Part shown: positions 5,363-61,700 of the stretch, piece by piece
Numbering within the stretch: the stretch's first letter is position 1
Layout of the letters: the number at the start of each line of letters is the position of its first letter
Assembly: GCA_965222075.1 (NCBI GenBank)
Contig: OZ244937.1
Coordinates: 1,440,001 to 1,504,000, forward strand
Direction: 5' to 3'
Length of the DNA stretch: 64,000 nt
From: Candidatus Latescibacterota bacterium
GTDB lineage: Bacteria > Latescibacterota > UBA2968 > GCA-2709665
The notes under the pieces: model-generated
The model's database searches: none
Told to the model about the DNA's origin: nothing
The model's input: the letters and a program-made list of their open reading frames with translations, nothing else
Translations under genes and position numbers: made by a program

Positions 5363-8300
5363 ATGAAGTTCCGGAGCAGGTATATTCCGATTGTGGTATG
5401 CGCGGCATTGCTTTTCAGCGCGGATGCGGTTCGGGCACAATCTGCTGGAACCGTCACCGGTACTGTGGTCGATGCTGAAAATGGAGACAAATTGGAAGTG
5501 GTGCAGGTCTATATTTTAGCCCTGAATCTGGGCGTGGTGTCGGACGCACAAGGCCGCTTTACCATCCACAATGTGCCGCCTGGCGCGCACAAACTGAGGG
5601 CCGACCTGATCGGCTATGCGAGCGTGGAGATTGCGGTCACTGTGGCTGCCGGGCAGACGGTCTCCATCGCGTTGCAGATGCATCCCACCGCGCTTTACCT
5701 GGATGAACTGGTGGTGACCGGCACGGCCTTCAAAGAATCCCCCATCAACTTGCCCTATGCGGTCGCCGTGGTCGGGCGGAAAAAGATGGAAGAACAGGGG
5801 TCTCCGCAGGCCGTTGATTTCTTCAAGAACCTGGGCGCGAGCCACGGCGTGATCGGCGAGCGGAGCAGCTGGTACAACGCCGGCCAGGCCGCCACCCTTA
5901 CGGAGAGCATCGCCAACGTCAACCTGCGCGGCCTGGGGGCCTCGCGCACCCTGGTGTTGATCAACAGCCGCCGCCAGACCTATGTCCCGGCACGCTTGAT
6001 CGGTGGGCGATTCGTCGATGTCAATGTCATCCCCGCCATCGCCATTGACCGGGTCGAAGTGCTCAAAGAGGGGGCCTCGGCCATCTATGGGTCGGATGCG
6101 GTGGCCGGCGTGGCCAATTTCTTGACCCGCGCCGACTTTACGGGCTTTGAAGTCTCGGCGGCCCACGACCATTTCGCCGGGGCCGGCGATACCAACGCCG
6201 GCGCGATATGGGGTGGGAAACTCGGCAAGGCCCATGCGGTTATTTCTGCGGAATGGAGGGGACGGCAAAAGTTGCCGGCCTCCGAAAGGGACTACCTGCT
6301 CCAGCCGTGGTACGGTAGCGGGCAGCGCCTCGGATGGTCGAGCCTGGGCAACCCGGGCACCTTCGCCATCGGAGCGCCCGCTCCATGGACCGCCGCCATC
6401 CACGCCCCGCACTGCGAGGAATTCGGCGGCTACCGGGAATCCTGGACCTGCCGCTTCCGCTATCAGCAGTATGAGAATCTGATCGAGGACATGAGCCATA
6501 CCCGTGCTTTTGCCGAGATCAACGGTTCTCTGGACAATGGCACCGATTATCACGTCGAAGGCCTGTGGGCCGAGGCCAGGATTGACGATTGGTACACGAC
6601 CCCTTCGTACCCTCCCTTCCCCCTGACAGACACGAGTATCCAGGAGGTCGCGCCCAACCACCCGGGCAGGCAGGCGTTCTGCGACGACTACGGCGCTGGG
6701 CCCGGCGACCCATACTACGAGGCATGCCAGGGCAGCGAGAACTGGTATTTCAACGGCCGCCCGTTTGGCAACTCGGGCCCCGGGCGCACGCTGGACCGCG
6801 ACTCCCGCACGTGGCGCGTGGCGGCTTCCGCGAATGGCGACTTTAAGGCATTCGGCGGGCAGGACGCTCATTTTGACCTGGGTATGTCCTATTCCCGCAC
6901 CGAGGGCAACTACAACCTGCCGGGGGTGTACATCGAGCGGATATTCCTTGGCTTCCGCGGTTTTGGGGGGCCAAATTGCGGCGTTGGCGTGGAGGCGGAT
7001 CCCACGTCCCTTGCCGGGATGCGGCTCGGCGCGCTCAACGGCCAGGTGGCAGGTCAGGGCAACTGCCAGTACTACAACCCCTTCGGCAATGCCATCGAGT
7101 TCACGGATCAACATGGCTCGAAGTATGCAACCCAGGCGAATCCCACTTACCGCGCCAACCTTGCCAACAGCCCCCAATTGCGGCAATGGCTCAATCAGGA
7201 AGTCGATCTACAGAGCACCGCGGATATGCTGGTCGCCGATGCGACGCTGACCGGAACGTGGATCGAGGACGTCGCCAGTTACGCGGCCGGCTACCAGTTC
7301 CGTCTGTTCAATGCCAGCGGCGATCCCAACGACGCCGGTGACGTGACCATCAACCCCTGTCCGGTTGTGGGCGATAAGAATTGCTCAGAGGAAGATAAGT
7401 TTGGTCCCTATGCGTTTACGAATGTGAATCGGCCTTATGATGAATCTCAGACGGTGCATCGCTTCTTTGCCGAGATTCCCCTGAGCCTGGGAGAGCGCGT
7501 TGATGCGCAACTCGCCGCGAACTACGAGTTCCACGACGTGGCGAGCAGTTTCGATCCCAAGTTCGGCTGGCGCGCGCAACTTTCGCAATCCCCGACCCAC
7601 TCCCTGTTCATGCGCGGCTCGGTGCAGACGACGTTTCGCACGCCAGCGCTGGACGATGTGAATGAAAGCCCGCTTTCGACGCTCGAGTGGATCAATGAGA
7701 CGGGCGCCTATCAAACGGTGGACCGAATCGGGAGCAAGGACCTCAAACCCGAACAGGCTTTTACCTATAATGCGGGCCTCGTCCTGGTCACAGAGACGGG
7801 CTTTGATGCGACGTTCGACTACTGGAGCTACGATTTCAGCGATGTCATCGGCTCCATGCCGCACGGGGAAATTACTAAATTATATGCCGATGGAGCGAAT
7901 AAGGAGGCCCTGAAGCAATTCATTGTCTGCCCGGACGGGGTAGGCACGGGCACATGCGCGGCCTCAGAACTCGAGCGGGTGCGAGTTGATATCGTCAATT
8001 GGCCAGGGGTCAAGACCTCGGGGATTGATTTGCATCTGGGCACGCGGGCGCAGGCGGGATCGGGGCAATTCGAGGCCAGTCTGGACGGCACCTATACGCT
8101 GGCGTACAAGACCAAGGCCCTGACGCTCGGCAGCCTGGTGCTCCAGAAAGCGGCGGACGCTGCCGGCTACTTGAATTTTGGAAATCCCATTGCAACCTCG
8201 CTTCCCAAGTTCAAGGGCCGGGTATCGGCGGGCTATCACTGGAAAACCCACAGCCTCGTGAGCTTCCTGAACTACATTTCGTCTTACGAGGACCGGGGGT

Positions 8301-9290: not shown

Positions 9291-10373
9291 TCAGACGTGA
9301 AACAAAAACTGAACCACATCCCCATCCCGCACCGGATAATCCTTACCTTCGGTCCGTATCTTTCCGGCCTCCCGGAGCCTGTCCATGCCACCGGCAGCGG
9401 CCAGGTCGCCATAAGAGACCACCTCTGCCCGGATGAACCCCTGCTCCATATCGGAATGAATTTCACCAGCCGCCTCCGGGGCAGGCGTTCCCTCTACGAG
9501 CTGCCATGCCCTGAGCTTTTCGTTGGCCACGGTATAAAAAGTAATCAGGTTCAGCAGCCGGTAGCCCGCCAGAATTAACCGGTCAACACCCGTCTCTTCC
9601 AACCCCAGATCGGACAGGAAGGCCTCCCGGTCTTCGGGAGGCAGCTGGGCGATCTCCGACTCGATCTGGGCCGAAATCACCAGCACCCGGTCCGGGCCGC
9701 AGCGCTCCTTCAGCCGCTCCGTATATGCCCCACCCTCAGGCACATTCTCTTCTCCCACATTCGCCAGATAAAGCACCGGCTTCCCGGTGAGGAAGTGGTA
9801 GCCCTTAACGACCCTCTGCTCGTCTTCGGAGAGGTCCAGGGCGTGCACCGGCACCTCCTGTTGCAGCTCCGATACAACCCTGACCACAATATCCTGCTCT
9901 CGTTTTTCAGGAGCGCGGGGACCGGCCTTCCTCAGCCGCTGCAGCGCCCCTTCGGCGGACTCCAAATCGGCTAAAATCAACTCCGTTCCAACGGTCTCCA
10001 CATCCCGCACCGGATCTACCCCACCCCCCACGTTGGCCACCCGGTCGTCTTCAAAACAGCGGACCACGTGCACCAGCGCATCCGCCTCCCGAATATGGCC
10101 CAAAAACCGGTTGCCCAGCCCCTCTCCCCGGCTGGCCCCCCGAACCAGTCCGGCGATGTCCACGAACCGAATGTGGGTAGGCGTACAGGTCTGGGGCTTT
10201 ATGATCTTGTTCAGACGAACCAGGCGTTCGTCCGGAACCTCCACCATCCCTACGTTGGGTTCCACGGTACAGAAAGGATAGTTGGATGCCTCGGCCTGCG
10301 CCTGGGTCAGGACGTTGAACAGCGTCGATTTGCCCACATTGGGCAGGCCGATAATTCCGATGAACAGGGACAT
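9291..10373 (-). CDS. ychF: Redox-regulated ATPase YchF
   Basis: GIIGLPNVGKSTLFN, NYPFCTVEPN, DIAGLVRGASRGEGLGNRFL, TGS domain EGKDYPVRDGDVVQFLF. Start moved to ATG 10373. Confidence 0.97.
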   Translation of the reverse strand: MSLFIGIIGLPNVGKSTLFNVLTQAQAEASNYPFCTVEPNVGMVEVPDERLVRLNKIIKPQTCTPTHIRFVDIAGLVRGASRGEGLGNRFLGHIREADALVHVVRCFEDDRVANVGGGVDPVRDVETVGTELILADLESAEGALQRLRKAGPRAPEKREQDIVVRVVSELQQEVPVHALDLSEDEQRVVKGYHFLTGKPVLYLANVGEENVPEGGAYTERLKERCGPDRVLVISAQIESEIAQLPPEDREAFLSDLGLEETGVDRLILAGYRLLNLITFYTVANEKLRAWQLVEGTPAPEAAGEIHSDMEQGFIRAEVVSYGDLAAAGGMDRLREAGKIRTEGKDYPVRDGDVVQFLFHV

Positions 10374-10397
10374 CTCACCTCGTATGGTGCGCCTTTG

Positions 10398-10436
10398 AAA
10401 AACGGCCAGCGATTGAGCGTTCAATTGCTGGCCGTT
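10398..10436 (-). terminator. Intrinsic terminator after the Mo-hydroxylase/MoaD operon
   Basis: AACGGCCAGCGATTGA-gcgt-TCAATTGCTGGCCGTT with a U-tract on the minus strand; near-identical hairpin at 20485-20526. Confidence 0.8.
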
Positions 10437-10457
10437 CAAACCTTCGGCGTTTGCCTG

Positions 10458-10724
10458 TTATCGCCCGCCGCTGATGGCGGTTACAAAGTGGATCTCGCTT
10501 TCCGGGTCTACCTTCTGCCTCATCCCCTCGTTGGTCACCACCCCGTCCACCGAAACGGCAAGACCGGGCCGAATCCGGTCCTCCTCGCACACCCGGTCTT
10601 TGACGCCAGGGTAGGCGGCCTCTAAGTTATTGATCACCTCCCGGATCGTCTCCCCTTCAACCCGAACCTGCTCCTTCCCGCCTGTCAGGCCCTGCATCAG
10701 CGATGGAATCCAGACCACGGGCAT
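10458..10724 (-). CDS. MoaD/ThiS family ubiquitin-like sulfur carrier
   Basis: MPVVWIPSLMQGLTGGKEQVRVEGETIREVINNL...EIHFVTAISGGR (88 aa), a beta-grasp signature; true start at ATG 10724. Confidence 0.9.
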   Translation of the reverse strand: MPVVWIPSLMQGLTGGKEQVRVEGETIREVINNLEAAYPGVKDRVCEEDRIRPGLAVSVDGVVTNEGMRQKVDPESEIHFVTAISGGR

Positions 10725-10728
10725 CGGG

Positions 10729-13056
10729 TTACGCCTTTCCATTTCCGTCTTTGGACCACAGGGTCTCCATGATCCGGCCCGGCGACATCGGCAGTTCGTA
10801 CATCCGCACGCCGACCGCCCGGTAAACCGCATTGGCAACAGCCGCCGGGGGCGGCACAATGGGCACCTCGCCCACGCCGCGCACCCCATAGGGATGCCCG
10901 GGGTTGGGCACCTCTACAATCACCGTCTCGATCATCGGCAGGTCTAAGCAGGTCGGCATCCGGTAGTCCAGGAAGCTGGCGTTGGTCAGCACCCCGTCTT
11001 TGTTGTAAATATACTCCTCGCTCAGCGCCCACCCAACGCCCTGCGCCACGCCACCCTGCATCTGCCCTTCCACGTAGCTGGGGTGGATCGCCTTCCCCGC
11101 GTCCTGGACGATGGTGCAGCGCAGGGTATCCACCTTCCCGGTCTCCGGGTCCACCTCCACGTCCACAATCATCAACGCAAAAGCCCCGCCCGGTCCCCTG
11201 GGCGTCACCGTCGCGCGGCCCACCAGCGCAGGTCCACCCGTCTGGCCGAGCTTCCCGGCCACTTCTTTGAATGTCATCGATTTCGACGCACCTGCCTGTG
11301 CGGAGCACGCAGACAGGTCCGACCTTGACCGGACCGCGCCATCTTCGTAGACCACGTCGTCTTCCGAGATTTCCCAGAACCGGGCCGCCCGCTCGACCAT
11401 CTGCCGTTTGATATCCTGCGCCGCCTCGTAGGCCGCAAAGCCGGTGGCAAAGGTGGTGCGGCTGCCTCCGGTTCCGTCCGTATGGCCGATGGCATCGGTA
11501 TCGACCACCATCGGCGTTACCTCCTCTGCCGGAATACCCAGCGCCTCTGCAAGGTGCATCGCAATAGACGTCCGGGTGCCCCCAATGTCCGGCGAGCCTT
11601 CCACCAGGGTAACCGACCCGTCGGGATTTACGTTCGCAATCGCGACCGACGTCCCCCCGCCGTTGAACCAGAACCCCAATGCGACACCCCGCCCCCGGTT
11701 CGGCCCCTCTAACGGGGCGGTGGTGTGGGGGTGGTCCATCGCAGCCCGGATCACCTCCTCACAGCCGATGCGGGGATAGATCGGGCCGTCCGCCCGCCGG
11801 GTGCCCTCTTTGGACGCATTCGCCAGCCGGAATTCAAGCGGGTCCATGTCCAGTTCTTCGCAGATCTCGTCGATCACCGTCTCGGACGCAAACGCCGCAT
11901 TCGTAGCCCCGGGCGCCCGGTAGGCCGACGTCTGGGGTTTGTTGACCACCACGTCGTACCCATCGATCTGCGTATTCTCGATATTGTAGGGCGCAAAAAT
12001 ACAGCCTGCGCCTGCCCCGACCGGAGACCCCGGATAGGCGCCCGCCTCGTAGGCCATATACGCCTCTGCGGCCACCAGCTTTCCCTCCCTCGTCGCCCCC
12101 ATCTTCACCCGGATGTACGACGCGGGCGTTGGACCGGTGCCCTTGAGGACCTCCGTCCGGCTCATCACAAACTTGACCGGATGGCCAGTTTTTTTGGAAA
12201 GCAGCGCCGCCACAGGCTCGTGGTAAACCCGAAACTTCCCGCCGAATCCCCCGCCGATCTCGGCTGGAACCACCCGAACCCTGGCAATGGGGATGCCCAG
12301 CACATCCGCCACCTGGCTGCGCACGTCGAAAGGCCCCTGTGTGCTGCACCAGACGGTCACCCGACCGTCCGTATTCCAGAGCGCCGTGGCGTTGTGGGGT
12401 TCGATATATCCCTGGTGCACCGTCCCGGTTGTAAACTCCCGCTCGACCACCACATCCGCCTCTTCGAACCCTTTCTCAACATCTCCGAACTTGTGCTGGA
12501 AGTGGTTGGCGATATTGCTCTTCTTATCGGTCTTTTCCCCCAGCGATCTCATCATCAGGTCGTCGTGCAAAAGGGGCACATCCTCTTTCATCGCCTTCTG
12601 AACATCCAGCACCGGGGGCAGGACCTCGTAGTCGACCTCGATCAGTTCCGCCGCCTCTTCCGCGATATGGACAGAGGTCGCAGCCACAGCCGCGACCGCA
12701 TGCCCCTCATAGAGCACCTTGTCATAGGCCAGCACGTTCTTCATCAGGTTGCTCAGCGTAACGACCCCCTCGCCCACCGCTCTGACCTTGTCTTCCACAA
12801 CCCTGGCCAGGTCCTTACCCGTCACCACCGCCTTCACACCGGGGTGCGCCTCTGCGCGGCTGGTATCGATCGATTTGATCCGCGCATGCGCATGCGGGCT
12901 TCTCAACGACTTCCCGTACAGCAGACCGGCCATCTGCACATCGGCCCCATACACCGCCCGCCCCGTCACCTTGTCCGCGCCGTCGTGCCGGATGGGCCGC
13001 GTACCGACGACTTTGTAATCCGTAATTCCCAGATATTCTTCCGTCTTTGTCGCCAT
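10729..13056 (-). CDS. Xanthine dehydrogenase/CoxL-like molybdopterin-binding subunit (paralogue 1; 9-aa repeat insertion)
   Basis: [45 protein letters not shown]. Confidence 0.95.
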   Translation of the reverse strand: MATKTEEYLGITDYKVVGTRPIRHDGADKVTGRAVYGADVQMAGLLYGKSLRSPHAHARIKSIDTSRAEAHPGVKAVVTGKDLARVVEDKVRAVGEGVVTLSNLMKNVLAYDKVLYEGHAVAAVAATSVHIAEEAAELIEVDYEVLPPVLDVQKAMKEDVPLLHDDLMMRSLGEKTDKKSNIANHFQHKFGDVEKGFEEADVVVEREFTTGTVHQGYIEPHNATALWNTDGRVTVWCSTQGPFDVRSQVADVLGIPIARVRVVPAEIGGGFGGKFRVYHEPVAALLSKKTGHPVKFVMSRTEVLKGTGPTPASYIRVKMGATREGKLVAAEAYMAYEAGAYPGSPVGAGAGCIFAPYNIENTQIDGYDVVVNKPQTSAYRAPGATNAAFASETVIDEICEELDMDPLEFRLANASKEGTRRADGPIYPRIGCEEVIRAAMDHPHTTAPLEGPNRGRGVALGFWFNGGGTSVAIANVNPDGSVTLVEGSPDIGGTRTSIAMHLAEALGIPAEEVTPMVVDTDAIGHTDGTGGSRTTFATGFAAYEAAQDIKRQMVERAARFWEISEDDVVYEDGAVRSRSDLSACSAQAGASKSMTFKEVAGKLGQTGGPALVGRATVTPRGPGGAFALMIVDVEVDPETGKVDTLRCTIVQDAGKAIHPSYVEGQMQGGVAQGVGWALSEEYIYNKDGVLTNASFLDYRMPTCLDLPMIETVIVEVPNPGHPYGVRGVGEVPIVPPPAAVANAVYRAVGVRMYELPMSPGRIMETLWSKDGNGKA
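11290..11318. repeat. Short palindromic element inserted in frame in Mo subunit 1
   Basis: ACCTGCCTGTGCGGAGCACGCAGACAGGT; deleting 11289-11315 (27 nt) restores SDPSKS as in the paralogues. Confidence 0.9.
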
Positions 13057-13092
13057 TTGTGGTCTATCTCCAGGGTCTTAACCCATTTTAAA

Positions 13093-13121
13093 ACCTGTCT
13101 GCGTGCATCGCACAGGCAGGT
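13093..13121. repeat. Short palindromic element, intergenic copy in opposite orientation
   Basis: ACCTGTCTGCGTGCATCGCACAGGCAGGT; its reverse complement matches the 11290 copy except for 2 loop bases. Confidence 0.9.
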
Positions 13122-13129
13122 CCGAATTT

Positions 13130-13166
13130 CCGTAGCATGCAGAGCGTCGGCAGGGCGCCCCTACGG
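13130..13166. repeat. Degenerate GTAG-type REP-like palindrome overlapping a stop codon
   Basis: Minus strand reads CCGTAGGGGCGCCCTG...GCATGCTACGG; the TAG of GTAG is the stop of Mo subunit 2. Confidence 0.4.
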
Positions 13167-15452
13167 TCCATCCCCACCTGTGGCCCAGAGCGCCTCCAGA
13201 ATCTGCCCCGGAGACATCGGCAGCACCTCCATCCGCACGCCGATCGCCCGGTAAATCGCATTGGCAAGCGCCGCCGGAGGAGGGACAATGGACGCCTCGC
13301 CTACGCCGCGCACCCCGTAGGGATGGCCCGGATTGGGCACCTCTACAATCACCGTTTCGATCATCGGCAGGTCCAGGCAGGTCGGCATCCGGTAATCCAG
13401 CAGGCTGGCGTTGGCCAGTTCCCCTCTTTCGGTGTAGAAATACTCCTCGTTCAGCCCCCACCCGATGCCCTGCGCCGTCCCGCCCTGCATCTGCCCTTCT
13501 ACGTAACTGGGGTGAATCGCCTTCCCCGCGTCCTGGACCATAGTCACGCGCAGAATATCAACCTTGCCGGTCTCCGGGTCCACTTCCACATCCACGATCA
13601 TCATCGTAAAGGATCCGCCCACCCCCTGTGGATCAACGGTCGCACGCCCCATCAACGGCCCGCCCGTTTGATTAAGCTTGCCTGACAACTCTTTGAACGA
13701 CAGAGATTTCGACGGATCAGATTTGGACCTGAACGTGCCGTCTTCAAATGCTACGTCATCCCCGGAGATCTCCCAGAATGTGGCGGCCCGCTCCACCATC
13801 TGCCGGATGATATCCTGCGCTGCTTCGTAAGCCGCCCAGCCGGTGGCGAAGGTCACGCGGCTACCGCCAGTGACGTCCGTCTCCCCCACCCCGTCGGTAT
13901 CCGCCACGACCGGCTTCACGTCCTCCACCGGGATGCCCAGCGGCTCGGCGAGCTGCATCGCCACCGACGTTCGCGTGCCGCCGATGTCGGTCGAACCCTC
14001 CACCAGGCTGACCGTACCGTCCGTATTCACGCTGGCGCTGGCGCTGGACTTCAGCCCCACGTTGAACCAGAAGCCGGACGCCACTCCCCGGCCCCGGTTC
14101 GGCCCCTCTATGGACGACCTGTAATGGTCGGATGCCATCGCCGCCTTCACCACCTCCTCGTGCCCGACCCGGGGGAAGGTCGGCCCATCCGCCCGGCGCG
14201 TGCCCTCCTTCGCCGAGTTCATCAGCCGAAACGCCAGAGGTTCCATCTCCAGCTGCTCGCAGATCTCGTCCACCACCGTCTCCGACCCAAACGCCGCATT
14301 GGTCGCGCCCGGCGCCCGGTAGGCCATCGTCTGCGGTTTGTTGACCACCACATTGTAGCCTTCGATCAGTATGTTCTCAATATCGTAGGGCGAAAAAATA
14401 CACATCGCCCCCGGCTCCGCCCAGCCGCCCGGGAACCCGCCCGACTCGTAGGCCAGATAGGCCTGTGCGGCCACCAGCCTGCCATCCTTTTTCGCTCCCA
14501 TCTTCACCCGGATATACGACCCCGGGGTCGGTCCGGTCGCCTTCAACACTTCGTCCCGGCTCATCACCATCTTCACCGGCCGGCCGGTCTTCCCTGACAG
14601 CAGCGCCGCAACAGGCTCCAAATAGACCCGGATCTTCCCGCCGAACCCCCCGCCGATCTCTGTGGGAATCACCCGCACGTTCACCACCGAAGTCTGGAGC
14701 AGCGCCGCCACCTGCTCACGGACCGTAAACGCCCCCTGGGTGCTGCACCAGACCGTCAGCCGCCCGTCCGGGTTCCACAGCGCCGTGGCGTTCTGCGGCT
14801 CGATATACCCCTGGTGCACAGTACCGGTTTGAAACTCCCGTTCGACCACCACGTCCGCCTCTTCAAATGCTTTCTCAACATCTCCGAATTTGTGCTGAAA
14901 GTGGGTGGCGATATTGCTCACCTTGCCGGTATCTTCGCCCAGGGACTGGGTGATCAAATCTTCAATCAGAAGCGGCGCATCCTCCGCCATCGCCTCCCGC
15001 ACGTCCAGCAGTGGCGGCAGCACCTCGTAGTCCACCTCGATCAGTTCCAGGGCCTCTTCGGCGGTGTGCGGGTCGGTGGCCGCCACCGCCGCCACCGCGT
15101 GCCCTTCGTAGAGCACCTTGCCGTCGGCCAGCACGTTGGCGCGCAGGTACAGGATATTGGTGGGACCCTCGCCCAACTCCACAATCGCCGACTCCGGAAC
15201 GGGGATATCCGCGACCGTCACCACGGCCCTCACCCCCGGGTGCGCCTCGGCCTTGCTGGTATCGATCGACTTGATCCGGGCGTGTGCATGGGGGCTGCGC
15301 AACACCTTCCCATGCAGCAGGCCGGCCATCTGCACATCGGCACCGTAGATCGCCCGCCCCGTTACCTTGTCCACCCCGTCGTGCCGGATCGGCCGGGTGC
15401 CGATCACCTTATAGTCTTCAATCCCCAGATAGTCTTCAGTCTTGGCCGCCAT
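13161..15452 (-). CDS. Xanthine dehydrogenase/CoxL-like molybdopterin-binding subunit (paralogue 2)
   Basis: Same motif set: [27 protein letters not shown]. Confidence 0.95.
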
Positions 15453-15457
15453 CGGTT

Positions 15458-15934
15458 CTATCCCTCCATCGTCTGGGCCGCATCCTGTACGGCCTGGACA
15501 ATTTTATCGTACCCGGTGCAACGACACAGATTGCCTGCCAGCCAGAGGCGGATCCGGTGTTCGGACGGATTCGGCTCCCGCTCCAGCAGCGCCTTTGCCG
15601 CCACGATAAACCCCGGCGTACAGATGCCACACTGAAGCGCCGCGTGTTCCAGGAACTTCTGCTGCAGCGGGTGCAGCCCCTCGGGGCTGGCGACCCCCTC
15701 GATCGTTGTGATCTCGCTCCCCTGCGCCTCCACCCCCAGCACCAGGCAGGAATCGACCACACGCCCGTCCAGGATTACGCTGCAGGCCCCGCAGTTACCG
15801 TTGCTGCACCCCTCTTTTGTGCCGGTCAGCCCGAGGGTATCCCTCAAGACCTCTAAGAGCGTCTCCCGGGGTTCACACAGGAGATCGACATCCTCACCGT
15901 TAATTTTGGTCTCTACGTGTACTTTGCCAGGCAT
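15458..15934 (-). CDS. (2Fe-2S)-binding small subunit, CoxS/CutS family
   Basis: [16 protein letters not shown]...SC; QCGICTPG; GNLCRCTGY. Confidence 0.96.
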
Positions 15935-15957
15935 TGATCCAGACTCCTTTGCTCGTT

Positions 15958-16833
15958 TTAAGACGCCTGTGCACGTTCAATAGCGCCCCTGATCGCTCGC
16001 CTGGTCAGCACGCCGGTCAGGTGCTTCCGCTGTTCCACGGTGCCGCGCATATCGCTAATAGGCCGGGCGGCCTCCCTCGCGATCTCCGCCGCCCTCTCAA
16101 CCGCCTCATCGGAAATTCCGTTCCCGGCCAGGGCCTCTGCGGCCTCCGACAGAAATAGGGGGATTGGCGCCACCGCGCCCACGGCAATCCGCGCAGACGC
16201 AACCCTGTTCTTGTCCTCATTCAGGACCACCGACGCGGCTGCGTTTACCACCGCGATATCCATCTCGTTCCTCGGAATGAACCGGAGGAAGAACGCCCCG
16301 GAATTGGGCTGCGGCGGTGGGATATGCAGCGAAACCAGAAACTCTCCGCTCTCCAAGACCGTCTGTCCGGGGCCCGTGCAGAAATCCTCAACCGCCACCT
16401 CCCGCCTGCCGTTGGGACCTGCAATCTGCGCCACTGCTCCAAGGACGATAATCGACGGAACCGTATCCGCCGCCGGAGAGGCATTGCACAGGTTGCCGCC
16501 CACCGTTGCGCGGCTCTGGATCTGAATCGACCCGATCAGCGACGTTGAATCCACCAGCGCCGGATAGGCCGCCGCGATGGCTTCATCCTCGTAAATCCGG
16601 CAGCAGGGCACCCCGGCGCCCAGTTGAAGCCCGTTCTCGGAATCGTAAGACAACGCGTTGGCCTCGGGGATCTTTTTGACGTCCACAAGAATATTCACCC
16701 GGAGCCGCCCCTCCTGGAGCTGTGCGATAATGTCGGACCCTCCGGCCAGCAAGCGGGCCTGATCGCCGTGTTCTGAAAGCAGCGAAACCACCTCATCGAC
16801 CGATTGGGGAGCCGCATAGTCAAATGCGTGCAA
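15958..16833 (-). CDS. FAD-binding medium subunit, CoxM/CutM family
   Basis: LLAGGSD, IQSRATVGGNLCNASPAAD, PISDMRG. Likely TTG start at 16833 with AGGAGG RBS. Confidence 0.95.
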   Translation of the reverse strand: MHAFDYAAPQSVDEVVSLLSEHGDQARLLAGGSDIIAQLQEGRLRVNILVDVKKIPEANALSYDSENGLQLGAGVPCCRIYEDEAIAAAYPALVDSTSLIGSIQIQSRATVGGNLCNASPAADTVPSIIVLGAVAQIAGPNGRREVAVEDFCTGPGQTVLESGEFLVSLHIPPPQPNSGAFFLRFIPRNEMDIAVVNAAASVVLNEDKNRVASARIAVGAVAPIPLFLSEAAEALAGNGISDEAVERAAEIAREAARPISDMRGTVEQRKHLTGVLTRRAIRGAIERAQAS

Positions 16834-16897
16834 GGCAATTCCTCCTATCGTTTTGGGAGATAAATGCGTCAAAAACCTGCTTTGGCCTTCGAGCACA

Positions 16898-16926
16898 AGA
16901 ATACGATTTCTCAACAACGCTGTCAA
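16898..16926 (-). promoter_or_regulatory. sigma70 promoter of the M-S-L-L-moaD operon
   Basis: TTGACA-17 nt-TATTCT on the minus strand, about 65 nt upstream of the start. Confidence 0.75.
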
Positions 16927-20575: not shown

Positions 20576-22882
20576 TCACGTCTTCCCGTTCCCACCCTTG
20601 CCGTTCTCGGACCAGAGGGCCTTCAAAATCCGTCCCGGAGACATTGGCAGTTCGTTCATCCGCACCCCGACTGCCCGGTAGATCGCATTGGCAACCGCCG
20701 CCAGCGGCGGTATAATGGACGCCTCACCCACCCCTCGCGCCCCGTAGGGGTGGCCCGGATTGGGCACCTCCACAATCACCGTTTCGATCATCGGCAGGTC
20801 CAGGCAGGTCGGCATCCGGTAATCCAGCAGGCTGGCGTTGGTCAGTTCCCCTTTCTCGTTGTAGATATACTCCTCGTTCAGCGCCCACCCGATGCCCTGC
20901 GCCATCCCGCCCTGCATCTGCCCTTCCACATAGCTTGGATAGATCGCCTTCCCTGCGTCCTGGATCATAGTCGCACGCAGGATATCCACCTTACCGGTCT
21001 CCGGATCGACTTCTACGTCCACAATCGCCTGGGTAAAAGACGCGCCCGCACCCCTGGGTTTCACGCTTGCACGCCCCATCACAGGTCCACCTGTCTCATC
21101 AAGTTTCCCCGCCATCTCTTTGAACATCAGGAATTTGGATGGATCGGACCTGGACTGAAAGACCCCATTTTCAAATTCCACATCGTCCTCGGAAATCTCC
21201 CAATAGAGGGCCGCCCTCTCGATCATCTGGCGCTCGACATCCTGCGCCGCCTCGTAGGACGCCCAGCCGGTGGCGAAGGCGGTGCGGCTGCCCCCCGTGT
21301 TGCCGGTATACGCGATCGCGTCGGTATCGGGCACGCTCGGTTTCACATCCTCCGCAGGGATGCCCAGCACCTCGGCAAGCTGCAATGCGCAGGCCGTCCG
21401 GGTGCCGCCGATGTCCACCGAGCCCTCCACCAGACTCACCGTCCCGTCGGCATTCACGCTCGCACAGGCGCTTGAAATACCCCCCCCGTTGCCCCAGAAC
21501 CCCGACGCCACCCCCCGGCCCCGGTTCGCTCCCTCCAGCGGGGTCTGGTAGTGGTCGCTTTCCATCGCCGCCTCCAAAACCTCCTCGTGCCCGACCCGGG
21601 GATAGACCGGCCCATCGGCCCGCCGTGTGCCCTCCTTCGCCGAATTTTTGAGCCGGAACGCCAGTGGGTCCATCCCCAGTTGCTCACAGAGTTCGTCGAT
21701 CACCGTCTCCGACGCAAACGCGGCATTGCTCACCCCGGGGGCCCGGTAGGCCGAGGTGGACGGCTTGTTGACCACCGCCTCATAGGCATCGATAAACACA
21801 TTCTCGATCGTGTAGGGGGCAAACATACAGCGTGCCCCGGCGCCCACCGGGCACCCGGGAAAGGCCCCCGCCTCATAGGCCAGGTAGGCGTATGCCGCAA
21901 CCAGCTTCCCCTCCCTGGTGGCCCCTATCTTCACCCGAATATACGACCCCGACGTAGGTCCGGTTGCTTGCAGCACCTCCGTTCGGGACATCACCAGCTT
22001 TACGGGATGTCCCGTCTGTTTGGAGAGCAACGCGGCCAGAGGCTCCAGATACACCTTGATCTTCCCGCCAAACCCGCCGCCGATCTCGGCCGGAACCACC
22101 CGGACTTTAGAGACCGACATATCGAAGAGCCTGGCTACCTGGTCCCGCACGCCAAACGCCCCCTGGTTGCTGCACCAGATGGTGAGGTGGCCGTCCGGGT
22201 TCCACAGCGCCGTGGCGTTCTGGGGCTCGATATACCCCTGGTGGACCATCCCGGTCTTAAACTCGTGTTCAACCACCACGTCCGCCTCTTCAAACCCCAC
22301 CTCTATATCGCCCAGTTTGTGCTGAAACTGCTGGGAAATATTGCTCACCTTCTCGGTCTCGGTACCCAGCGATCTGGTCGTCTGGTCTCCATGCAGGAGC
22401 GGCGCGCCGTCCGCCATCGCCTCTCGCACGTCCAGCACCGGTTCGAGAACCTCGTAGTCCACCTTGATCGATTCCAGCGCCTCTTCGGCCACGTGAGGAT
22501 TGATGGCCGCTACCGCCGCCACCGGGAACCCCTGGTAGAGCACCTTGTCGGTGGCCAGCACGGCGGCGAAGAGATGCTTCAGCCGGACAATCTCTTCACC
22601 CAGGTCCTCCACCTTGTCTTCGAAGGCGCGAATGAAATCCTGCCCCGTAATCACGGCCTTGACTCCCGGATGGGCCTCCGCGCGGCTGGTGTCAATCGAT
22701 TTGATCCGGGCATGCGCATGGGGGCTTCTCAACACCTTCCCGTGCAGCAGCCCCGCCATTTGCACGTCCGCCCCGTAGATCGCCCGCCCCGTCACCTTAT
22801 CCATGCCGTCGTGTCGAATCGGACGGGTCCCAACAACCTTGTAGTCTTCAATCCCCAGATACGCTTGGGCCTTCGTCGCCAT
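20576..22882 (-). CDS. Xanthine dehydrogenase/CoxL-like molybdopterin-binding subunit (paralogue 3, stand-alone)
   Basis: Starts [16 protein letters not shown] like the other two paralogues; AYRAPG, RGVGE. Confidence 0.95.
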   Translation of the reverse strand: MATKAQAYLGIEDYKVVGTRPIRHDGMDKVTGRAIYGADVQMAGLLHGKVLRSPHAHARIKSIDTSRAEAHPGVKAVITGQDFIRAFEDKVEDLGEEIVRLKHLFAAVLATDKVLYQGFPVAAVAAINPHVAEEALESIKVDYEVLEPVLDVREAMADGAPLLHGDQTTRSLGTETEKVSNISQQFQHKLGDIEVGFEEADVVVEHEFKTGMVHQGYIEPQNATALWNPDGHLTIWCSNQGAFGVRDQVARLFDMSVSKVRVVPAEIGGGFGGKIKVYLEPLAALLSKQTGHPVKLVMSRTEVLQATGPTSGSYIRVKIGATREGKLVAAYAYLAYEAGAFPGCPVGAGARCMFAPYTIENVFIDAYEAVVNKPSTSAYRAPGVSNAAFASETVIDELCEQLGMDPLAFRLKNSAKEGTRRADGPVYPRVGHEEVLEAAMESDHYQTPLEGANRGRGVASGFWGNGGGISSACASVNADGTVSLVEGSVDIGGTRTACALQLAEVLGIPAEDVKPSVPDTDAIAYTGNTGGSRTAFATGWASYEAAQDVERQMIERAALYWEISEDDVEFENGVFQSRSDPSKFLMFKEMAGKLDETGGPVMGRASVKPRGAGASFTQAIVDVEVDPETGKVDILRATMIQDAGKAIYPSYVEGQMQGGMAQGIGWALNEEYIYNEKGELTNASLLDYRMPTCLDLPMIETVIVEVPNPGHPYGARGVGEASIIPPLAAVANAIYRAVGVRMNELPMSPGRILKALWSENGKGGNGKT

Positions 22883-22987
22883 GGTGTTTTTCCTCCGTAA
22901 CGAGCGCTTTTTCGACACGGTTGGAGACCATCTCGACCTTGTAATGCAGGAAACGCCAACCCCACGAGCGGGCCGTCATATCCCGGT

Positions 22988-31710: not shown

Positions 31711-31739
31711 GCCTGCCTGCGTCCCCCGGACAGGCAGGC
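31711..31739. repeat. Short palindromic element (long form)
   Basis: GCCTGCCTGCGTCC-CCC-GGACAGGCAGGC. Confidence 0.85.
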
Positions 31740-52493: not shown

Positions 52494-52638
52494 ATTATGC
52501 GCCTGGATTCATCCAAAGTCAAGCACAGAATGGCCAGGGGCTCAAGCCCTCCTGCCCGGACACGGTCCGTCCCTTACTTACTGTGAAATGGGTTTGGCAA
52601 CATCTCCACAGGATAGCCATTTCGCCCGTTTCTGTCAA
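52494..52638 (-). promoter_or_regulatory. Two tandem sigma70 promoter candidates upstream of solA
   Basis: TTGACT-17-CATAAT (52494-52522) and TTGACA-17-TATCCT (52610-52638) on the minus strand. Confidence 0.55.
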
Positions 52639-52776
52639 GGATGCGATGCGCAAAAGGAAGGTATTTGAATGCCCCAAAAAAGACTTGCGCCCGCCCGTTT
52701 AATTGTGTATATCCAAAATAGACAAAGCTAAGAGGTTCCCGTTCGATCCACTTCACCCCACTCAGGGGGGTTCACC

Positions 52777-52962
52777 ATGCAGCAAGCGCCCACACTGGAA
52801 TCCAGGTTATCCCGCGTAGAAGGCATTGTCGAGCAAATCGACAAGCGCCTAACAAGCCTCGAAACGCGCATGGCCAGCCTGGAAATCGGTCAACGCTGGA
52901 TTATCGGTATCCAGTTCACCACGCTGTTGACGCTTGGATCACTCATTCTTTTCAAGCTCTAA
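52777..52962 (+). CDS. Small coiled-coil protein with C-terminal TM (XhlA/DUF1640-like)
   Basis: 61 aa; heptads LESRLSRVEG...LETRMASLE then RWIIGIQFTTLLTLGSLILFKL; AGGGGG RBS. Confidence 0.75.
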   Translation: MQQAPTLESRLSRVEGIVEQIDKRLTSLETRMASLEIGQRWIIGIQFTTLLTLGSLILFKL

Positions 52963-52965
52963 CAC

Positions 52966-53000
52966 GCCTGCCTGTGCGTGTGCCACGCACGCAGACAGGT
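52966..53000. repeat. Short palindromic element (long form) just after a stop codon
   Basis: GCCTGCCTGTGCGTG-TGC-CACGCACGCAGACAGGT. Confidence 0.9.
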
Positions 53001-53302
53001 AAGGACGGAACCCCGCCCTTAACGCGATGTTGAGAATTTCTGGCCTAGAGAGACAATCCGCCCGAATCCGCTAATTGGCCTTGAAATCTCAAATCCCACC
53101 AGATAAAGGCGCCGTTGCCAGTGAGATAAACGCCTACAAAAAGAGTGTGATACGCAATAGTATCGTTAAAGGTGCAGAGTCCCACGACCACCATCCATGA
53201 AGCCCATCAGATCAATATAAAAGGTTTAAATCAATAAAATACTGTACGCAACCAGGTATATGGCAAGTCCCCCTTTCTACGCCTGTTCTTAAGTCCCCCT
53301 TT

Positions 53303-54598
53303 TTACTCCTGTTCAATGACCTCGATCTTATGGCCATCGGTCCACCTGTCCGGCCAGCCATCGGCGGTGTAGCCTGTGGCCTCAGCGGTCCGCAGCGACG
53401 AGAAAGGCCCATCGCCCAAACGGGCCAGCACACCGCCGGGACCCATATCCGGATCGACGGCAACCGTCACGTCCAGGGGCTGATCGATGGGCACCTCAGG
53501 TCCTGTCCAGACGCAGGGATAGCGCTCACGTGGATCGTAGAGCGCAACCGTAAGCCGGGGTGCCCAGCCGTCCAGCGAAATGCGCACCCGGGGAAACGGC
53601 TCGGCTTCACAACGTCCCTCAAGCAGCACGCGCGCCGGCGAGGACGCAATCTCTTCGGCCTTGAACCGCCAGATTCGTGCGGTGCCGGGCGCCAGAGGCC
53701 ACGCGACCGACTCGCGCCTGCGTCCTTCCATATCCAGGGTCTGGCACCGCAGACCCTGATCGTCCAGGGCAATCTGCACCAGGTGGTGGTACTCGGTTGG
53801 TGCGGGCATGCACCCGCCCGGACCAAAACTTGTGCCGGCGCCGCCGCTGGTCATCTGCAGCACACCCTGGTGCACCTGCGCGTCGAATGCAATCACGTGG
53901 CTGCACAAATACGCGGTCACACGATGGCGTGCCAGTACATCCCAGAACGGTCTTCCAAATTCGGGAGACATCGTCCAGATGCGGGCGGTGTATCCATTCA
54001 CCGGATAAACCGGCGTATGCCCCATTACAACCTTGTGGGCCGCATCCGCATGCTCGGTCAAAACGCGATCGACCCACCCGTGGTCCGCCCGGCCACCGAA
54101 AACCGTAGACGGAGCGCCCAGTGTCGTAGCATACACATTCAGCGCAATCATCAGAAGCTCGCCCTCGCGCACAAAATAGCTCAGCCCCTCCTGGCCGGGA
54201 GGCCCGTTGGCCGGAATCTCGGGAAACACCTCGCGCCATACGTCCTCGCTCACAGCATTAAACGTATCGTGATTCCCGGCAATGCGGTAGACCGGAACCC
54301 CCATGTCCCTCAGGGGCTTCATCTCCCCCCCCAGAACGCGGCCCCACTCTGCCCGCAGGGCATCCGGGTCCGGATTCGGACCGTGGTCGCGTTTGAGGCC
54401 CCAGATCATATCTCCCAGGAAACACACAAAATCGGGCCCGGGCGTCAGCCGCCCCATCACATCGTGCAGCGCAGCCAGATGCTGCTCGTGGTTCCGACCC
54501 GGCTCCGGCGGGCCAATGCAGCAGTCTCCGTATGCCACAAACTGGCATCCCGACCCGCCGCGGGGCGTCAGAGCCGATACCGAATCTGCTATATTCAT
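53303..54598 (-). CDS. Calcineurin-like metallophosphoesterase
   Basis: YGD, FLGD, AGNHD, MGH.P, CSH; start MNIADS. Confidence 0.88.
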   Translation of the reverse strand: MNIADSVSALTPRGGSGCQFVAYGDCCIGPPEPGRNHEQHLAALHDVMGRLTPGPDFVCFLGDMIWGLKRDHGPNPDPDALRAEWGRVLGGEMKPLRDMGVPVYRIAGNHDTFNAVSEDVWREVFPEIPANGPPGQEGLSYFVREGELLMIALNVYATTLGAPSTVFGGRADHGWVDRVLTEHADAAHKVVMGHTPVYPVNGYTARIWTMSPEFGRPFWDVLARHRVTAYLCSHVIAFDAQVHQGVLQMTSGGAGTSFGPGGCMPAPTEYHHLVQIALDDQGLRCQTLDMEGRRRESVAWPLAPGTARIWRFKAEEIASSPARVLLEGRCEAEPFPRVRISLDGWAPRLTVALYDPRERYPCVWTGPEVPIDQPLDVTVAVDPDMGPGGVLARLGDGPFSSLRTAEATGYTADGWPDRWTDGHKIEVIEQE

Positions 54599-58682: not shown

Positions 58683-58724
58683 GCCCCCTCCCCTTGTGGG
58701 GAAGGAGGGTCAGAGGGTTAGATC

Positions 58725-61700
58725 GTGCTCAACCGAATCATCGAAGCAAGTCTCCGTAACCGTTTCCTGATCGTCCTTGGAACGTTGTTCGCCATTGGGT
58801 GGGGGATCTACGCAGTGTGGAACACCCCCTTAGACGCGATTCCGGACCTGTCGGACGTGCAGGTGATTATCCTTACGGAGTATCCCGGGCAGGCGCCCCA
58901 GGTGGTGGAAGACCAGATCACCTATCCGTTGACCACCGCGATGCTGGCGGTGCCCTTTGCCAAGGCCGTGCGGGGCTACTCCTTTTTCGGGCTGTCGTTC
59001 GTCTACGTCATCTTCGAAGACGGCACGGACATGTACTGGGCGCGCAGCCGGGTGCTGGAGTACCTCAACTTCGTCTCGGGCCGCCTGCCCGGGGGCGTCA
59101 CCCCCTCGCTCGGTCCGGATGCGACGGGCGTGGGCTGGGTCTACGAATACGTTCTGGAGGACACCACGGGGAAACACGACCTGGCCGAACTCCGCTCAAT
59201 CCAGGACTGGTACCTGCGCTACGAACTGACCGGTGTGCCCGGTGTGTCGGAGGTGGCCAGCATCGGCGGCTTTGTGAAACAGTACCAGGTCACCGTGGAC
59301 CCGAACAGGCTGCTGGCCTACAACATCCCCCTGCAGAAGATCCGGACGGCAATCCGGCGCAGCAACAACGACGTGGGGGGACGGTTGATCGAAATGGGCG
59401 AGACGGAATTTATGGTGCGCGGCCTGGGCTACATCAACTCCCTGGACGACATCCGCAGCGTTCCGGTCGGCGTGGACGCCGGTGGGACGCCGATCCGGGT
59501 GCGGGACATCGCCACCGTACAGCTTGGGCCGGAACTGCGGCGGGGGCTGGCCGAGTGGAACGGACAGGGAGAGGTCGTCGGCGGCATCGTGGTCATGCGC
59601 TACGGAGAAAATGCCTTAGCCGTGATCGACCGGGTAAAAGAAAAGATCGAATCTCTCAAACCCGGTCTGCCCGAGGGCGTGGTCATCCGAACCGCCTACG
59701 ATCGGTCGGCATTGATCCTGCGGGCGATCGACAATCTCAAGGGAAAACTGATCGAAGAGAGCGCGGTGGTGGCCCTCGTCTGCATCCTCTTCCTGCTCCA
59801 CTTACGCAGCGCCTTCGTGGCAATCGTCACCCTGCCCGTGGGCATCCTGATCTCCTTTGCGATCATGCACAACCAGGGGATCAACGCGAACATCATGTCC
59901 TTAGGCGGCATCGCCATCGCCATTGGAGCGATGGTGGACGCGGCCATCGTCATGATCGAAAACGCGCACAAACACATCGAACGGGATGCGGGAAAAAAGG
60001 ACCACTGGGAGATCATCCTGGACGCCTCTAAGGAAGTGGGACCGGCGCTGTTCTACTCCCTGCTGATCATCACCCTCTCCTTCCTGCCGGTCTTCACGCT
60101 GCAGGCGCAGGAGGGCAGGCTGTTCAAACCCCTGGCGTTTACCAAAACCTACGCGATGGCCGCCTCCGCGCTCCTGGCGATTACGATTGTGCCGGTGCTG
60201 ATGGGCTTCTTCATCCGGGGCCGGATTCTGCCTGAGCGCAAGAACCCGATCAACCGACTCCTGATTCGGATCTACCGGCCCGCGATCGACTGGGTGCTGC
60301 GTCACAAGATCGCCACCATCGTCCTGGCCGGCCTTATGCTGTTTGTCACCGTCTTTCCGTTCGGGAGCATGGTCCTGTCCCACTTTTCCGACCTGCCTGT
60401 GCGCCGCACGCAGACAGGTCACCTCCAAAGCCTGAGCTACCGTGCCCTGGTGAAAGTAGACCGGCTTTTTCCTTTAGAGAAGATCGGCTCGGAGTTTATG
60501 CCCCCCCTCTACGAAGGCGACCTGCTCTACATGCCCACCACCCTGCCCGGCATCTCCGTCACAAAGGCCCGGGAACTCCTGCAGCAAACCGACAAGATCA
60601 TCCGCACCTTCCCGGAGGTACACCACGTATTCGGGAAGATCGGGCGGGCGGAAACGGCCACGGACCCGGCCCCTCTGTCCATGATCGAGACCACGATCAT
60701 GCTCAAGCCGGAAAGCGGGTGGCGGCCGGGGATGACGCCGGAAAAGCTGGTGGACGCCCTCAACGAGGCCATCCGGTTCCCCGGCCTGACGAACGCCTGG
60801 ACGATGCCAATCAAAACCCGGATTGATATGCTTTCAACCGGCATCAAGACCCCGGTGGGGATCAAGGTTGCAGGGGACAACCTGGAGACACTGCAGCGGT
60901 TGGGCAAACAGATCGAAGACGTGGTGCGGAACCTGCCGGGCACCCTGAGCGTGTTCGCCGAGCGGGTGGTCGGCGGGAACTACCTGGACTTTGAAATCGA
61001 CCGGGAGGAGGCCGCACGCTACGGGCTTACCGTGGGAGACGTGCAGGACATCATCATGTCGGCCGTAGGCGGCATGAACATCACCCACACCGTGGAGGGA
61101 CGGGAGCGATACCCGGTGAACCTGCGCTACGGCCGGGAACTGCGGGACAACCTCCCGGCGCTGCGCCGGGTGCTGGTGCCCACGCCCATGGGAGCGCAGG
61201 TACCGATCGGACAGCTTGCGGCTATCCACATCCGGAAGGGCCCGCCGGGCATCAAGAGTGAAAATGCCCGCCTGAATGCCTGGGTCTACGTGGACATCAA
61301 GAACATCGACGTGGGGACCTACGTGGGACGGGCGCAGCAGGCGGTGCTGGAGCACGTGCAGATGCCGCCCGGCTACACCGTGATCTGGAGCGGGCAGTAC
61401 GAGTATATGCAGCGGGCTGAGAAGCGGTTGAAAGTGGTCGTCCCCGTAACGTTGGGAATCATCTTCCTGCTGCTGTTCCTGAACTTTCGGAATGTAGTCG
61501 AAAGCCTGATCGTCATGCTTTCCCTGCCCTTCGCGCTGGTCGGTGGCATCTGGCTCATGTACCTGCTGGACTACAACATGAGCGTGGCCGTAGGGGTAGG
61601 CTTTATCGCATTGGGCGGGGTGGCCGCAGAGACGGGGGTGATCATGCTGATCTACTTAGACCACGCCTACGAGGCGATACGCCGCGAAAAGGGCGCCCGG

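Follow-up and report, generated by a model that had tools for sequence, protein, structure and literature searches.

The subject of this analysis is a 27-nucleotide (nt) imperfect palindrome lying within a protein-coding gene of Candidatus Latescibacterota bacterium (GenBank assembly GCA_965222075.1), in a stretch of 64,000 nt (contig OZ244937.1, positions 1,440,001 to 1,504,000), hereafter called the window. The gene (10729..13056, minus strand, 775 amino acids (aa), frame intact), which a preliminary description of this DNA named subunit 1, carries at 11291..11317 the plus-strand sequence CCTGCCTGTGCG GAG CACGCAGACAGG, encoding on the minus-strand gene the nine residues LSACSAQAG, i.e., residues 581-589. 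With a probability of about 85%, this segment arrived very recently as a single copy of a mobile repeat, 27 nt long and able to form a hairpin. The preliminary description had proposed an exact 27-nt in-frame insertion into subunit 1, which is borne out both by a gap in the orthologues and by a strain lacking exactly 27 bases; the membership of the insert in a genome-wide, cross-phylum family goes beyond what was then seen. The host is a sponge-associated bacterium (public runs matching the window are labelled sponge metagenome or coded organisms), with a genome, denoted G000, of 5.36 Mb in one contig and 59.3% G+C.

At the protein level, subunit 1 reads ...RSRSD-LSACSAQAG-ASKSMTF..., with nine extra residues between D580 and A590 that it alone possesses among the three paralogues of the window, the other two, namely paralogue 2 (13161..15452, minus strand, 763 aa, 74% identical to subunit 1) and paralogue 3 (20576..22918, minus strand, 780 aa, 73% identical), reading SD-PSK without insert. 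Orthologues were sought by a protein search of 30 related genomes. In the same-genus orthologue (genome G001, 97% aa identity), the match covers 2298 nt vs 2325 nt in the own genome, and in the same-family orthologue (genome G004, 92% aa identity) it covers 2295 nt. Both orthologues read TCG GAT GC(T/G) TCG AAG, i.e., S-D-A-S-K, and their gap in the DNA alignment falls exactly at 11291-11317, the filled site reading TCG GA[27 nt]T GCG TCG AAA. These edges cannot slide because the insert does not begin with the base that follows it, nor end with the base that precedes it, and the reading frame is kept because the 27 nt contain no stop codon in that frame. From these orthologous sequences, the ancestral state reads as D-A and not as the D-P of the paralogues. 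As such, the empty site that had been thought reconstructable can be seen directly in G001, in G004 and in a near-identical natural strain, but the paralogue state D-P had wrongly been taken for it; similarly, deleting 11289-11315 does yield GAC CCG TCG AAA, as had been calculated, whereas the historical edges are shifted by 2 nt. The insert is carried by none of the 45 homologous segments from the 30 related genomes, and in an alignment of 122 sequences, where the 121 other homologues are 34-74% identical, its nine columns hold no residue in 119 of these homologues and a single residue in the remaining two. Comparison with paralogues and external orthologues, suggested from the outset, finds the insert in subunit 1 only and contradicts an ancestral extension.

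The insertion is still polymorphic among near-identical strains. Contigs of four public runs were aligned to the window, and both alleles were found among them, in agreement with the with/without polymorphism initially envisaged. In run X10, a 1818-nt contig over 11140-12984 differs by one other letter and lacks 27 letters at 11291, which corresponds to the empty allele. The filled allele is represented in run X3 by a 1514-nt contig over 11140-12653 with 0 differences, and in the RNA-library run X13 by a 196-nt contig over 11188-11383, likewise with 0 differences, where DNA carry-over is possible. The presence of the empty allele in so close a strain as that of X10 makes the insertion very recent; alternatively, the X10 form results from a precise loss, and either reading implies mobility.

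The inserted sequence belongs to a repeat family of the design CCTGCCTGTGCG-NNG-CACGCAGACAGG, that is, 12-nt imperfect inverted arms around a 3-nt loop. Allowing up to 3 mismatches, the 27-mer occurs at 3 sites in the window vs 0 in 100 shuffles; genome-wide, 39 sites are found with at most 1 mismatch (0 for a reversed-pattern control), and 37 copies are exact. With the arms kept and 3-33 nt allowed between them, 59 copies are counted, measuring 27 nt (37 copies), 36 nt (9), 30 nt (6), 33 nt (2), 31 nt (2), and 34, 28 or 57 nt (one each), so that the length is a multiple of 3 (27, 30, 33, 36 or 57 nt) in 55 of the 59 copies but in just 5 of the 8 length classes. Variation between copies is almost wholly restricted to loop positions 13-14, the arms being invariant down to three non-Watson-Crick positions, namely two C·A and one T·G opposition. 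Besides the copy in subunit 1, the window holds (i) a second copy with loop ATG at 13094..13120 (minus strand), in the 104-nt spacer between the tandem large-subunit genes and absent from G001, (ii) a third copy with loop CCG at 60392..60418 (plus strand), in frame in an AcrB/RND-type transporter open reading frame (ORF; 58722-61961, plus strand, ACR_tran with an E-value of 2e-228 in Pfam) and absent from the orthologues of G001, G004 and G003, and (iii) a variant of 33 nt, where 9 nt separate the same 12-nt arms, at 52967..52999 (plus strand), just after a small ORF. Two of the new insertions thus lie 1.8 kb apart, in and beside the gene of subunit 1, and such clustering extends to the whole genome, with 15 gaps below 2 kb between neighbouring copies, whereas 2000 random trials gave 1.2 on average and never more than 6. 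The family is active or recently active in genome G000, as indicated by its 37 exact copies, by the absence of six clean insertions from sister genomes and by the strong clustering. An Rfam search of positions 10000-14000 of the window gave no match with E-values up to 1, and, the arms being imperfect, the site also escaped a search for inverted repeats with a seed of 6. As to the surroundings of the 33-nt variant, a stretch of 755 nt, from about 52553 to 53307, is missing from G001; the small ORF ends at about 52960 and the variant directly follows. Elsewhere, a 99-nt unit seems to have been duplicated in tandem at G000:C1:2492830-2492955, where two copies with the same sequence and the same flanks are 99 nt apart.

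The mode of insertion can be read from the clean empty sites, i.e., those where the orthologous position is available in G001 and/or G004. These read TCGGA^TGCG for 11291-11317, CGGA^TTTT for the spacer copy 13094-13120, CCGA^TCAC for the AcrB copy 60392-60418, GTGA^TGGG for G000:C1:4022890, TGGA^TCGA for G000:C1:4023022 and CCGA^T for G000:C1:1872327. In 6/6 cases, exactly 27 nt were gained between the A and the T of GA^T, with no duplication; the earlier impressions that no obvious target-site duplication exists and that a target preference might be at work are thereby both strengthened. Three of the six insertions are oriented one way and three the other, GA^TC sites being ambiguous in this respect. 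Considering the whole set of 59 copies, A^T flanks 24 (the background of the AT dinucleotide being 4.8%) and GA^T, on either strand, flanks 19 (background of 3.6% per site). Since A and T, usually as GA...T(C), flank the insert, the target adds one or two base pairs to the stem, which agrees with the suggestion that target bases supply part of one palindrome arm. Insertion at the tips of existing hairpins was considered as a general rule and rejected, flank complementarity equalling that of a shuffled-partner control except at 4 of 137 loci; self-nested copies do exist (L082 and L132). For three further copies, the junctions are less accessible: the gene for a cadherin/fn3/leucine-rich repeat (LRR) protein (L041) has no orthologue in G001 or G004 and hence no empty site, the empty-site search for L035 gave no match, and a copy in an FG-GAP gene sits in a composite insertion of about 129 nt that renders its own edges unreadable.

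Insertion into genes is a common feature of the family in genome G000. When the longest open frame through each exact copy was scanned against Pfam, at least 10 of the 37 copies proved to be spanned or bracketed by a domain match. The genes concerned encode the CoxL-like subunit 1, the AcrB/RND pump, the protein of locus L041, where the element lies in an fn3 domain, an FG-GAP/ASPIC protein, and transposases of four kinds with six copies in total (DDE_Tnp_4 twice, DUF4096, DUF772, and DDE_5 twice). Three further copies stand in UPF0236-type ORFs, beside the matched stretch.

Beyond genome G000, 1-4 copies occur in each of 10 among the 30 relatives, and three of these 10 belong to another family within the order. 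A wider scan for the 24 fixed bases, taking one genome per species, found them in at least 121 stretches of genome contigs, with about 18 phylum-level labels among the 80 titled matches listed. The labels include Thermodesulfobacteriota, Nitrospirota, Verrucomicrobia/Kiritimatiellae, Latescibacterota, Planctomycetota and Methylomirabilota, as well as Chloroflexota, Acidobacteriota, Bacillota, Spirochaeta and Elusimicrobia. Only within genomes are the flanks of these external copies related; of the 123 external copies listed, 101 have G as 5' neighbour and 96 a junction of the purine^pyrimidine type. At 15 of the 121 loci listed, the open frame extends over 80 codons or more to either side, 4 of the 15 have a Pfam match, and in 2 of those 4 the match spans the element, i.e., in a Mutator-type transposase and in an N6 methylase. 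Copies inside genes outside G000 are found at L123 and L134. In a Thermodesulfobacteriota contig (L117) from a metagenome-assembled genome (MAG), two inverted copies (301-327 and 667-693), 340 nt apart, both appear to lie in frame in an ORF whose motifs suggest an IS91-like transposase. The 27-mer also occurs in 22 stretches of viral contigs; on one contig of the IMG/VR database (L205), a copy at 6001-6027 lies in a 698-aa ORF ending in a phage capsid domain (a capsid fusion), and another at 10119-10145 in the ORF of a terminase large subunit. A second viral contig carries two copies with the same 4118-nt spacing as L205. In other phyla, hairpins of the CCCCTCCCC type sometimes enclose the 27-mer (L089 and L108).

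As the repeat has no coding capacity, its mover would act in trans, and the transposase and phage genes holding in-frame copies could plausibly serve as a vehicle between hosts. The likeliest mobiliser, tentatively, would be an enzyme, either a nuclease or a transposase, that recognises the single-stranded DNA folded into the hairpin and cleaves at the base of the stem, in an HUH-like manner, related either to RAYTs (transposases associated with repetitive extragenic palindromic (REP) sequences) and the insertion sequences (IS) IS200/IS605, or to IS91/Helitron-like enzymes. A hairpin-recognising single-strand enzyme is favoured because the target is not duplicated, because the stems are frozen while the loop is free, and because the junction is A^T. 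A broader and somewhat more doubtful proposal is that the 27-mer ranks among the smallest mobile DNAs, with stems invariant across the phylum labels noted among the matches listed, one archaeal MAG label and phages, and that it hops harmlessly between hosts, in frame in transposase and phage genes, inserting at GA^T without duplication by a ubiquitous or undescribed hairpin-specific activity other than a RAYT.

A number of observations weigh against the favoured reading or limit the evidence. Firstly, no candidate enzyme of genome G000 is associated with the family: the two Y1_Tnp matches are a 147-aa IS200-like gene with its own, unrelated hairpins and a broken copy, neither near a family copy; the one Y2_Tnp match is a degenerate remnant that contains a stop codon and is separated by about 20 kb from the closest family copy; the sole GIY-YIG match lies in a 629-aa ORF; and the four DUF559 genes are bracketed by two other types of hairpin, with no matching cassette for the 27-mer. 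Secondly, Y1_Tnp and the element are not correlated among the 30 relatives, as G004 (8.1 Mb) has 32 Y1_Tnp (IS200/IS605-type) matches, many identical, and 0 copies of the 27-mer, while G011 and G012 have one copy of the 27-mer each and no Y1_Tnp match. Thirdly, the orientation of copies relative to the replichore (36:23, Fisher p 0.15, with the origin at about 4.21 Mb and the terminus at about 1.34 Mb from the GC skew) is not significantly biased, unlike that of IS608-type elements, and the use of both orientations at GA^T, 3 and 3, argues against a fixed guide-target geometry, albeit with ambiguity at GA^TC sites. Fourthly, as DNA, single copies fold into hairpins of modest energy (-7 to -8 kcal/mol, z -1.4 to -3.4). 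Fifthly, openness in all six frames, once considered as a design feature of the 27-mer, was rejected as such, 26-31% of random 27-mers being likewise open. Lastly, MAG labels may include mis-binned contigs, which may apply to the one Methanosarcinales label, borne by a 3.8-kb contig. Two further searches were negative: no HUH-like ORF was found in the two candidate regions where a REPtron-like gene could lie between inverted copies, and a tblastn comparison of the IS200-like TnpA, located at G000:C1:2071937-2072296, with the 121 external loci gave nothing below an E-value of 0.5.

Among the alternatives, the one that survives best, unlikely as it is, dispenses with any dedicated transposase and has copies spread by template switching or microhomology-mediated repair, where a nascent strand ending in ...GA would jump to a copy flanked by GA...T(C), copy the hairpin and return at the T; any host reached by a copy, e.g., within an IS or phage, would then be able to propagate it. 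Such a process would fit the fact that all 6 empty sites share GA / T with the commonest flanks of existing copies, as well as the strong local clustering and the use of both orientations, which would follow if a GA-element-TC donor could be copied from either strand; it would also agree with the failure to find a cognate enzyme or a link with Y1_Tnp, and the spread across phyla would need no co-transferred enzyme. However, 1-3 nt is little microhomology to guide events so exact and repeated, and the 5' flank prevailing in the listed copies of other phyla is G, not A. Template switching also leaves unexplained why the 24 stem bases, including the three non-Watson-Crick positions, are invariant across phyla while the loop varies, a pattern suggesting recognition by a sequence-specific factor.

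Mobilisation of a folded hairpin by an enzyme, the favoured reading, can be set against several known systems. Passages of Di Nocera et al. (2013, PMC3733652) describe REPs as imperfect GC-rich palindromes of 20-40 nt, forming two superfamilies with a GTAG or CGTC tag, and mention that intragenic REPs and Rickettsia palindromic elements (RPEs) had already been described. REPINs, mobilised with RAYTs, provide the best-studied mechanism, and parts of Bertels and Rainey (2011, PMC3116915) hold the doublet to be the replicative unit. The present family resembles REPs as a short imperfect palindrome without coding capacity, in tens of dispersed copies that are sometimes clustered or nested, some being read through in ORFs. 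It differs from them in that GTAG/CTAC accompanies 0 of the 59 copies, and CGTC/GACG is present 7 times within 8 nt of the ends, in the share of genic copies among the exact ones (at least 10/37), and in the constancy of the same 24 fixed bases across many phyla. Unlike in the REPIN-RAYT system, no RAYT flanked by 27-mer repeats is present in the genome, and the unit moved in the 6/6 clean insertions is a singlet.

The likeness to RPEs is that of a palindromic repeat lying in frame in a functional gene and encoding an added segment, which here is read from the gene and a predicted loop. RPEs, as Ogata and colleagues reportedly described them in 2000, measure roughly 100-150 bp, are translated into additional segments at the protein surface and are confined to Rickettsia; the present element differs by its 27 nt, its non-Rickettsia host and its occurrence under about 18 phylum labels among the matches listed. 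The cyanobacterial elements SDR1-8, said to have been described by Elhai and colleagues in 2008, reportedly measure 21-27 nt, are mobile according to comparisons of filled and empty sites, are often nested in their own copies or in other repeats, and were proposed as the smallest mobile elements; they are said to be confined to one cyanobacterial subgroup, with an RNA intermediate proposed. Going by this description, the 27-mer family would behave most like the SDRs, while being present in many phyla.

Helitron/IS91 elements insert between A and T without target duplication, have a hairpin recognised near their end and, for Helitrons, termini of the form TC...CTRR. Insertion at A^T without duplication at the 6/6 empty sites is shared with them, but the 27-mer ends with CC...GG, has no Rep/Hel or intact Y2 gene nearby, and consists as a whole of a single 27-nt hairpin. 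In the IS200/IS605 family and its non-autonomous derivatives, the palindrome-associated transposable elements (PATEs), a hairpin is likewise recognised and the target is not duplicated, both of which are shared by the 27-mer and consistent with a single-strand mechanism; the differences are the lack of two distinct ends, the unrelated hairpins of the one intact TnpA in the genome and, less clearly, the orientation, since IS200/IS605-type elements insert 3' of a fixed short target in a single orientation with a lagging-strand bias, and the 27-mer, with GA^T at 6/6 sites, lies either way round (GA^TC sites being ambiguous) with no significant lagging-strand bias. Unlike MITEs (miniature transposable elements with inverted repeats), which depend on a DDE transposase, the 27-mer shows no target-site duplication at the 6 empty/filled pairs; as to a parent IS, lone arms exist and none was noticed paired around a transposase gene, no systematic search for such pairs having been made. 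Among the matches listed for the 12-mer arms and their reverse complements in the main texts of papers, the contexts looked like primers or were otherwise apparently unrelated, and none concerned repeats. The family, its GA^T rule, its mobility as a singlet and its constancy across phyla appear to be undescribed in the literature searched; the kind of event is known, from intragenic REPs and RPEs, while an untagged, singlet and cross-phylum family looks new.

Considering its effect on the protein, an AlphaFold2 model of subunit 1 was built on the 122-sequence alignment (mean predicted local distance difference test (pLDDT) of 95.1, predicted template modelling score of 0.94). The insert forms a coil between the strands 574-577 and 593-595, with a pLDDT of 66 for the block 581-590 and of 94 and 95 for the flanking blocks. 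In the family alignment, it falls at the turn of the ...DG.V.VKG.P.K..S..ELA hairpin and aligns to the ...GSQDPG... turn of 1rm6_A. According to the model, LSACSAQAG extends the tip of a beta-hairpin that is predicted in the molybdopterin-binding domain at the C-terminus; of the surface loop for which structure prediction had been proposed, the loop itself is thus recovered at a predicted turn. Most likely, the nine residues would be a tolerated passenger loop and not an adaptation. That the loop or its mRNA hairpin has a selected function, e.g., in subunit contacts, translation or mRNA stability, is very improbable: the gene is intact, the filled allele is assembled in several runs and in an RNA library, and the mRNA strand can form a more fully paired hairpin (-27.6 kcal/mol for 67 nt, z -2.0), all of which would suit such a function, but the same element occurs in many unrelated genes, spacers and transposases, the empty allele persists in a strain differing by 1 nt in 1.8 kb, 0 of the 121 homologues have the loop at this site, and the pLDDT of the segment is low. 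As for an ancestral extension lost in paralogues and orthologues, or an assembly artefact, nothing was found in its favour, the paralogues by themselves being unable to tell which state came first, and its probability is negligible, given the empty sites in G001, G004 and 45/45 segments of relatives, the identity of the insert with an exact copy of a dispersed repeat, and the independent public runs, stemming from other studies, that assemble the filled form with 0 differences (X3 and X13) or the empty form (X10).

Read as a recent insertion of a mobile hairpin, the locus catches the birth of a protein loop, as filled and empty alleles 1 nt apart in 1.8 kb coexist in nature, and this allele pair offers a clean case for the tolerance of random nine-residue insertions and for their possible later recruitment. 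If the broader proposal were true, the 27-mer would be a general and overlooked source of nine-residue loop insertions in prokaryotic proteins. The copies in transposase and phage genes suggest a route across phyla for a 27-mer that carries no gene, and identifying the activity that moves it would add a mechanism to the short list of modes of DNA mobility. The family follows sharp rules that can be tested: the insert measures exactly 27 nt and enters GA^T in either orientation without duplicating this target, and its stems are frozen whereas its loop is free. On the practical side, inserts of this kind displace alignments and may be taken in error for adaptive loops specific to a lineage.

Regarding the host gene, subunit 1 comprises the Pfam domains Ald_Xan_dh_C, MoCoBD_1 and MoCoBD_2, and its closest solved structures are 1rm6_A, the alpha subunit of 4-hydroxybenzoyl-CoA reductase (E-value of 8e-99), and 8uem_A (CoxL). 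It is the molybdopterin-binding large subunit of an enzyme of the xanthine dehydrogenase/carbon monoxide dehydrogenase family, with the genes of the flavin adenine dinucleotide (FAD) and [2Fe-2S] subunits adjoining. The latter lie upstream of the large subunits on the minus strand, i.e., the [2Fe-2S] small subunit at 15458-15934 and the FAD-binding medium subunit at 15958-16926, which together (15458..16926) with the two tandem large-subunit genes give the operon gene order M-S-L-L. The third large-subunit paralogue stands alone, 4 kb from the operon (10729-16926), and the tandem pair of large-subunit genes is also present in relatives.

Other palindromes accompany the family in this genome. 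The four DUF559 genes, which code for Vsr-like nucleases and of which three stand in tandem (G000:C1:3759015-3760392 and 3773924-3774512), are each bracketed by a 23-nt hairpin, CCCCTCCCCG AAA CGGGGAGGGG, and a 25-nt hairpin, CCCCCTTTCC...GGAAAGGGGG. In the window, a sister-family palindrome of 27 nt, of the CCTGCCTGCGTCC CCC GGACAGGCAGG type, is located at 31712..31738 (plus strand). Further sister families with the same 12+3+12 layout, e.g., CTTGCCTGCGCG CAG CGCGCAAGCAGG and CCCGCCTGCGCG CTG CGCGCGGGCAGG, have their own pairs of C/T oppositions between the arms; members of these sister families are found, among other positions, at G000:C1 318895, 319721, 320260, 1541010 and 2040214, often nested with the main family.

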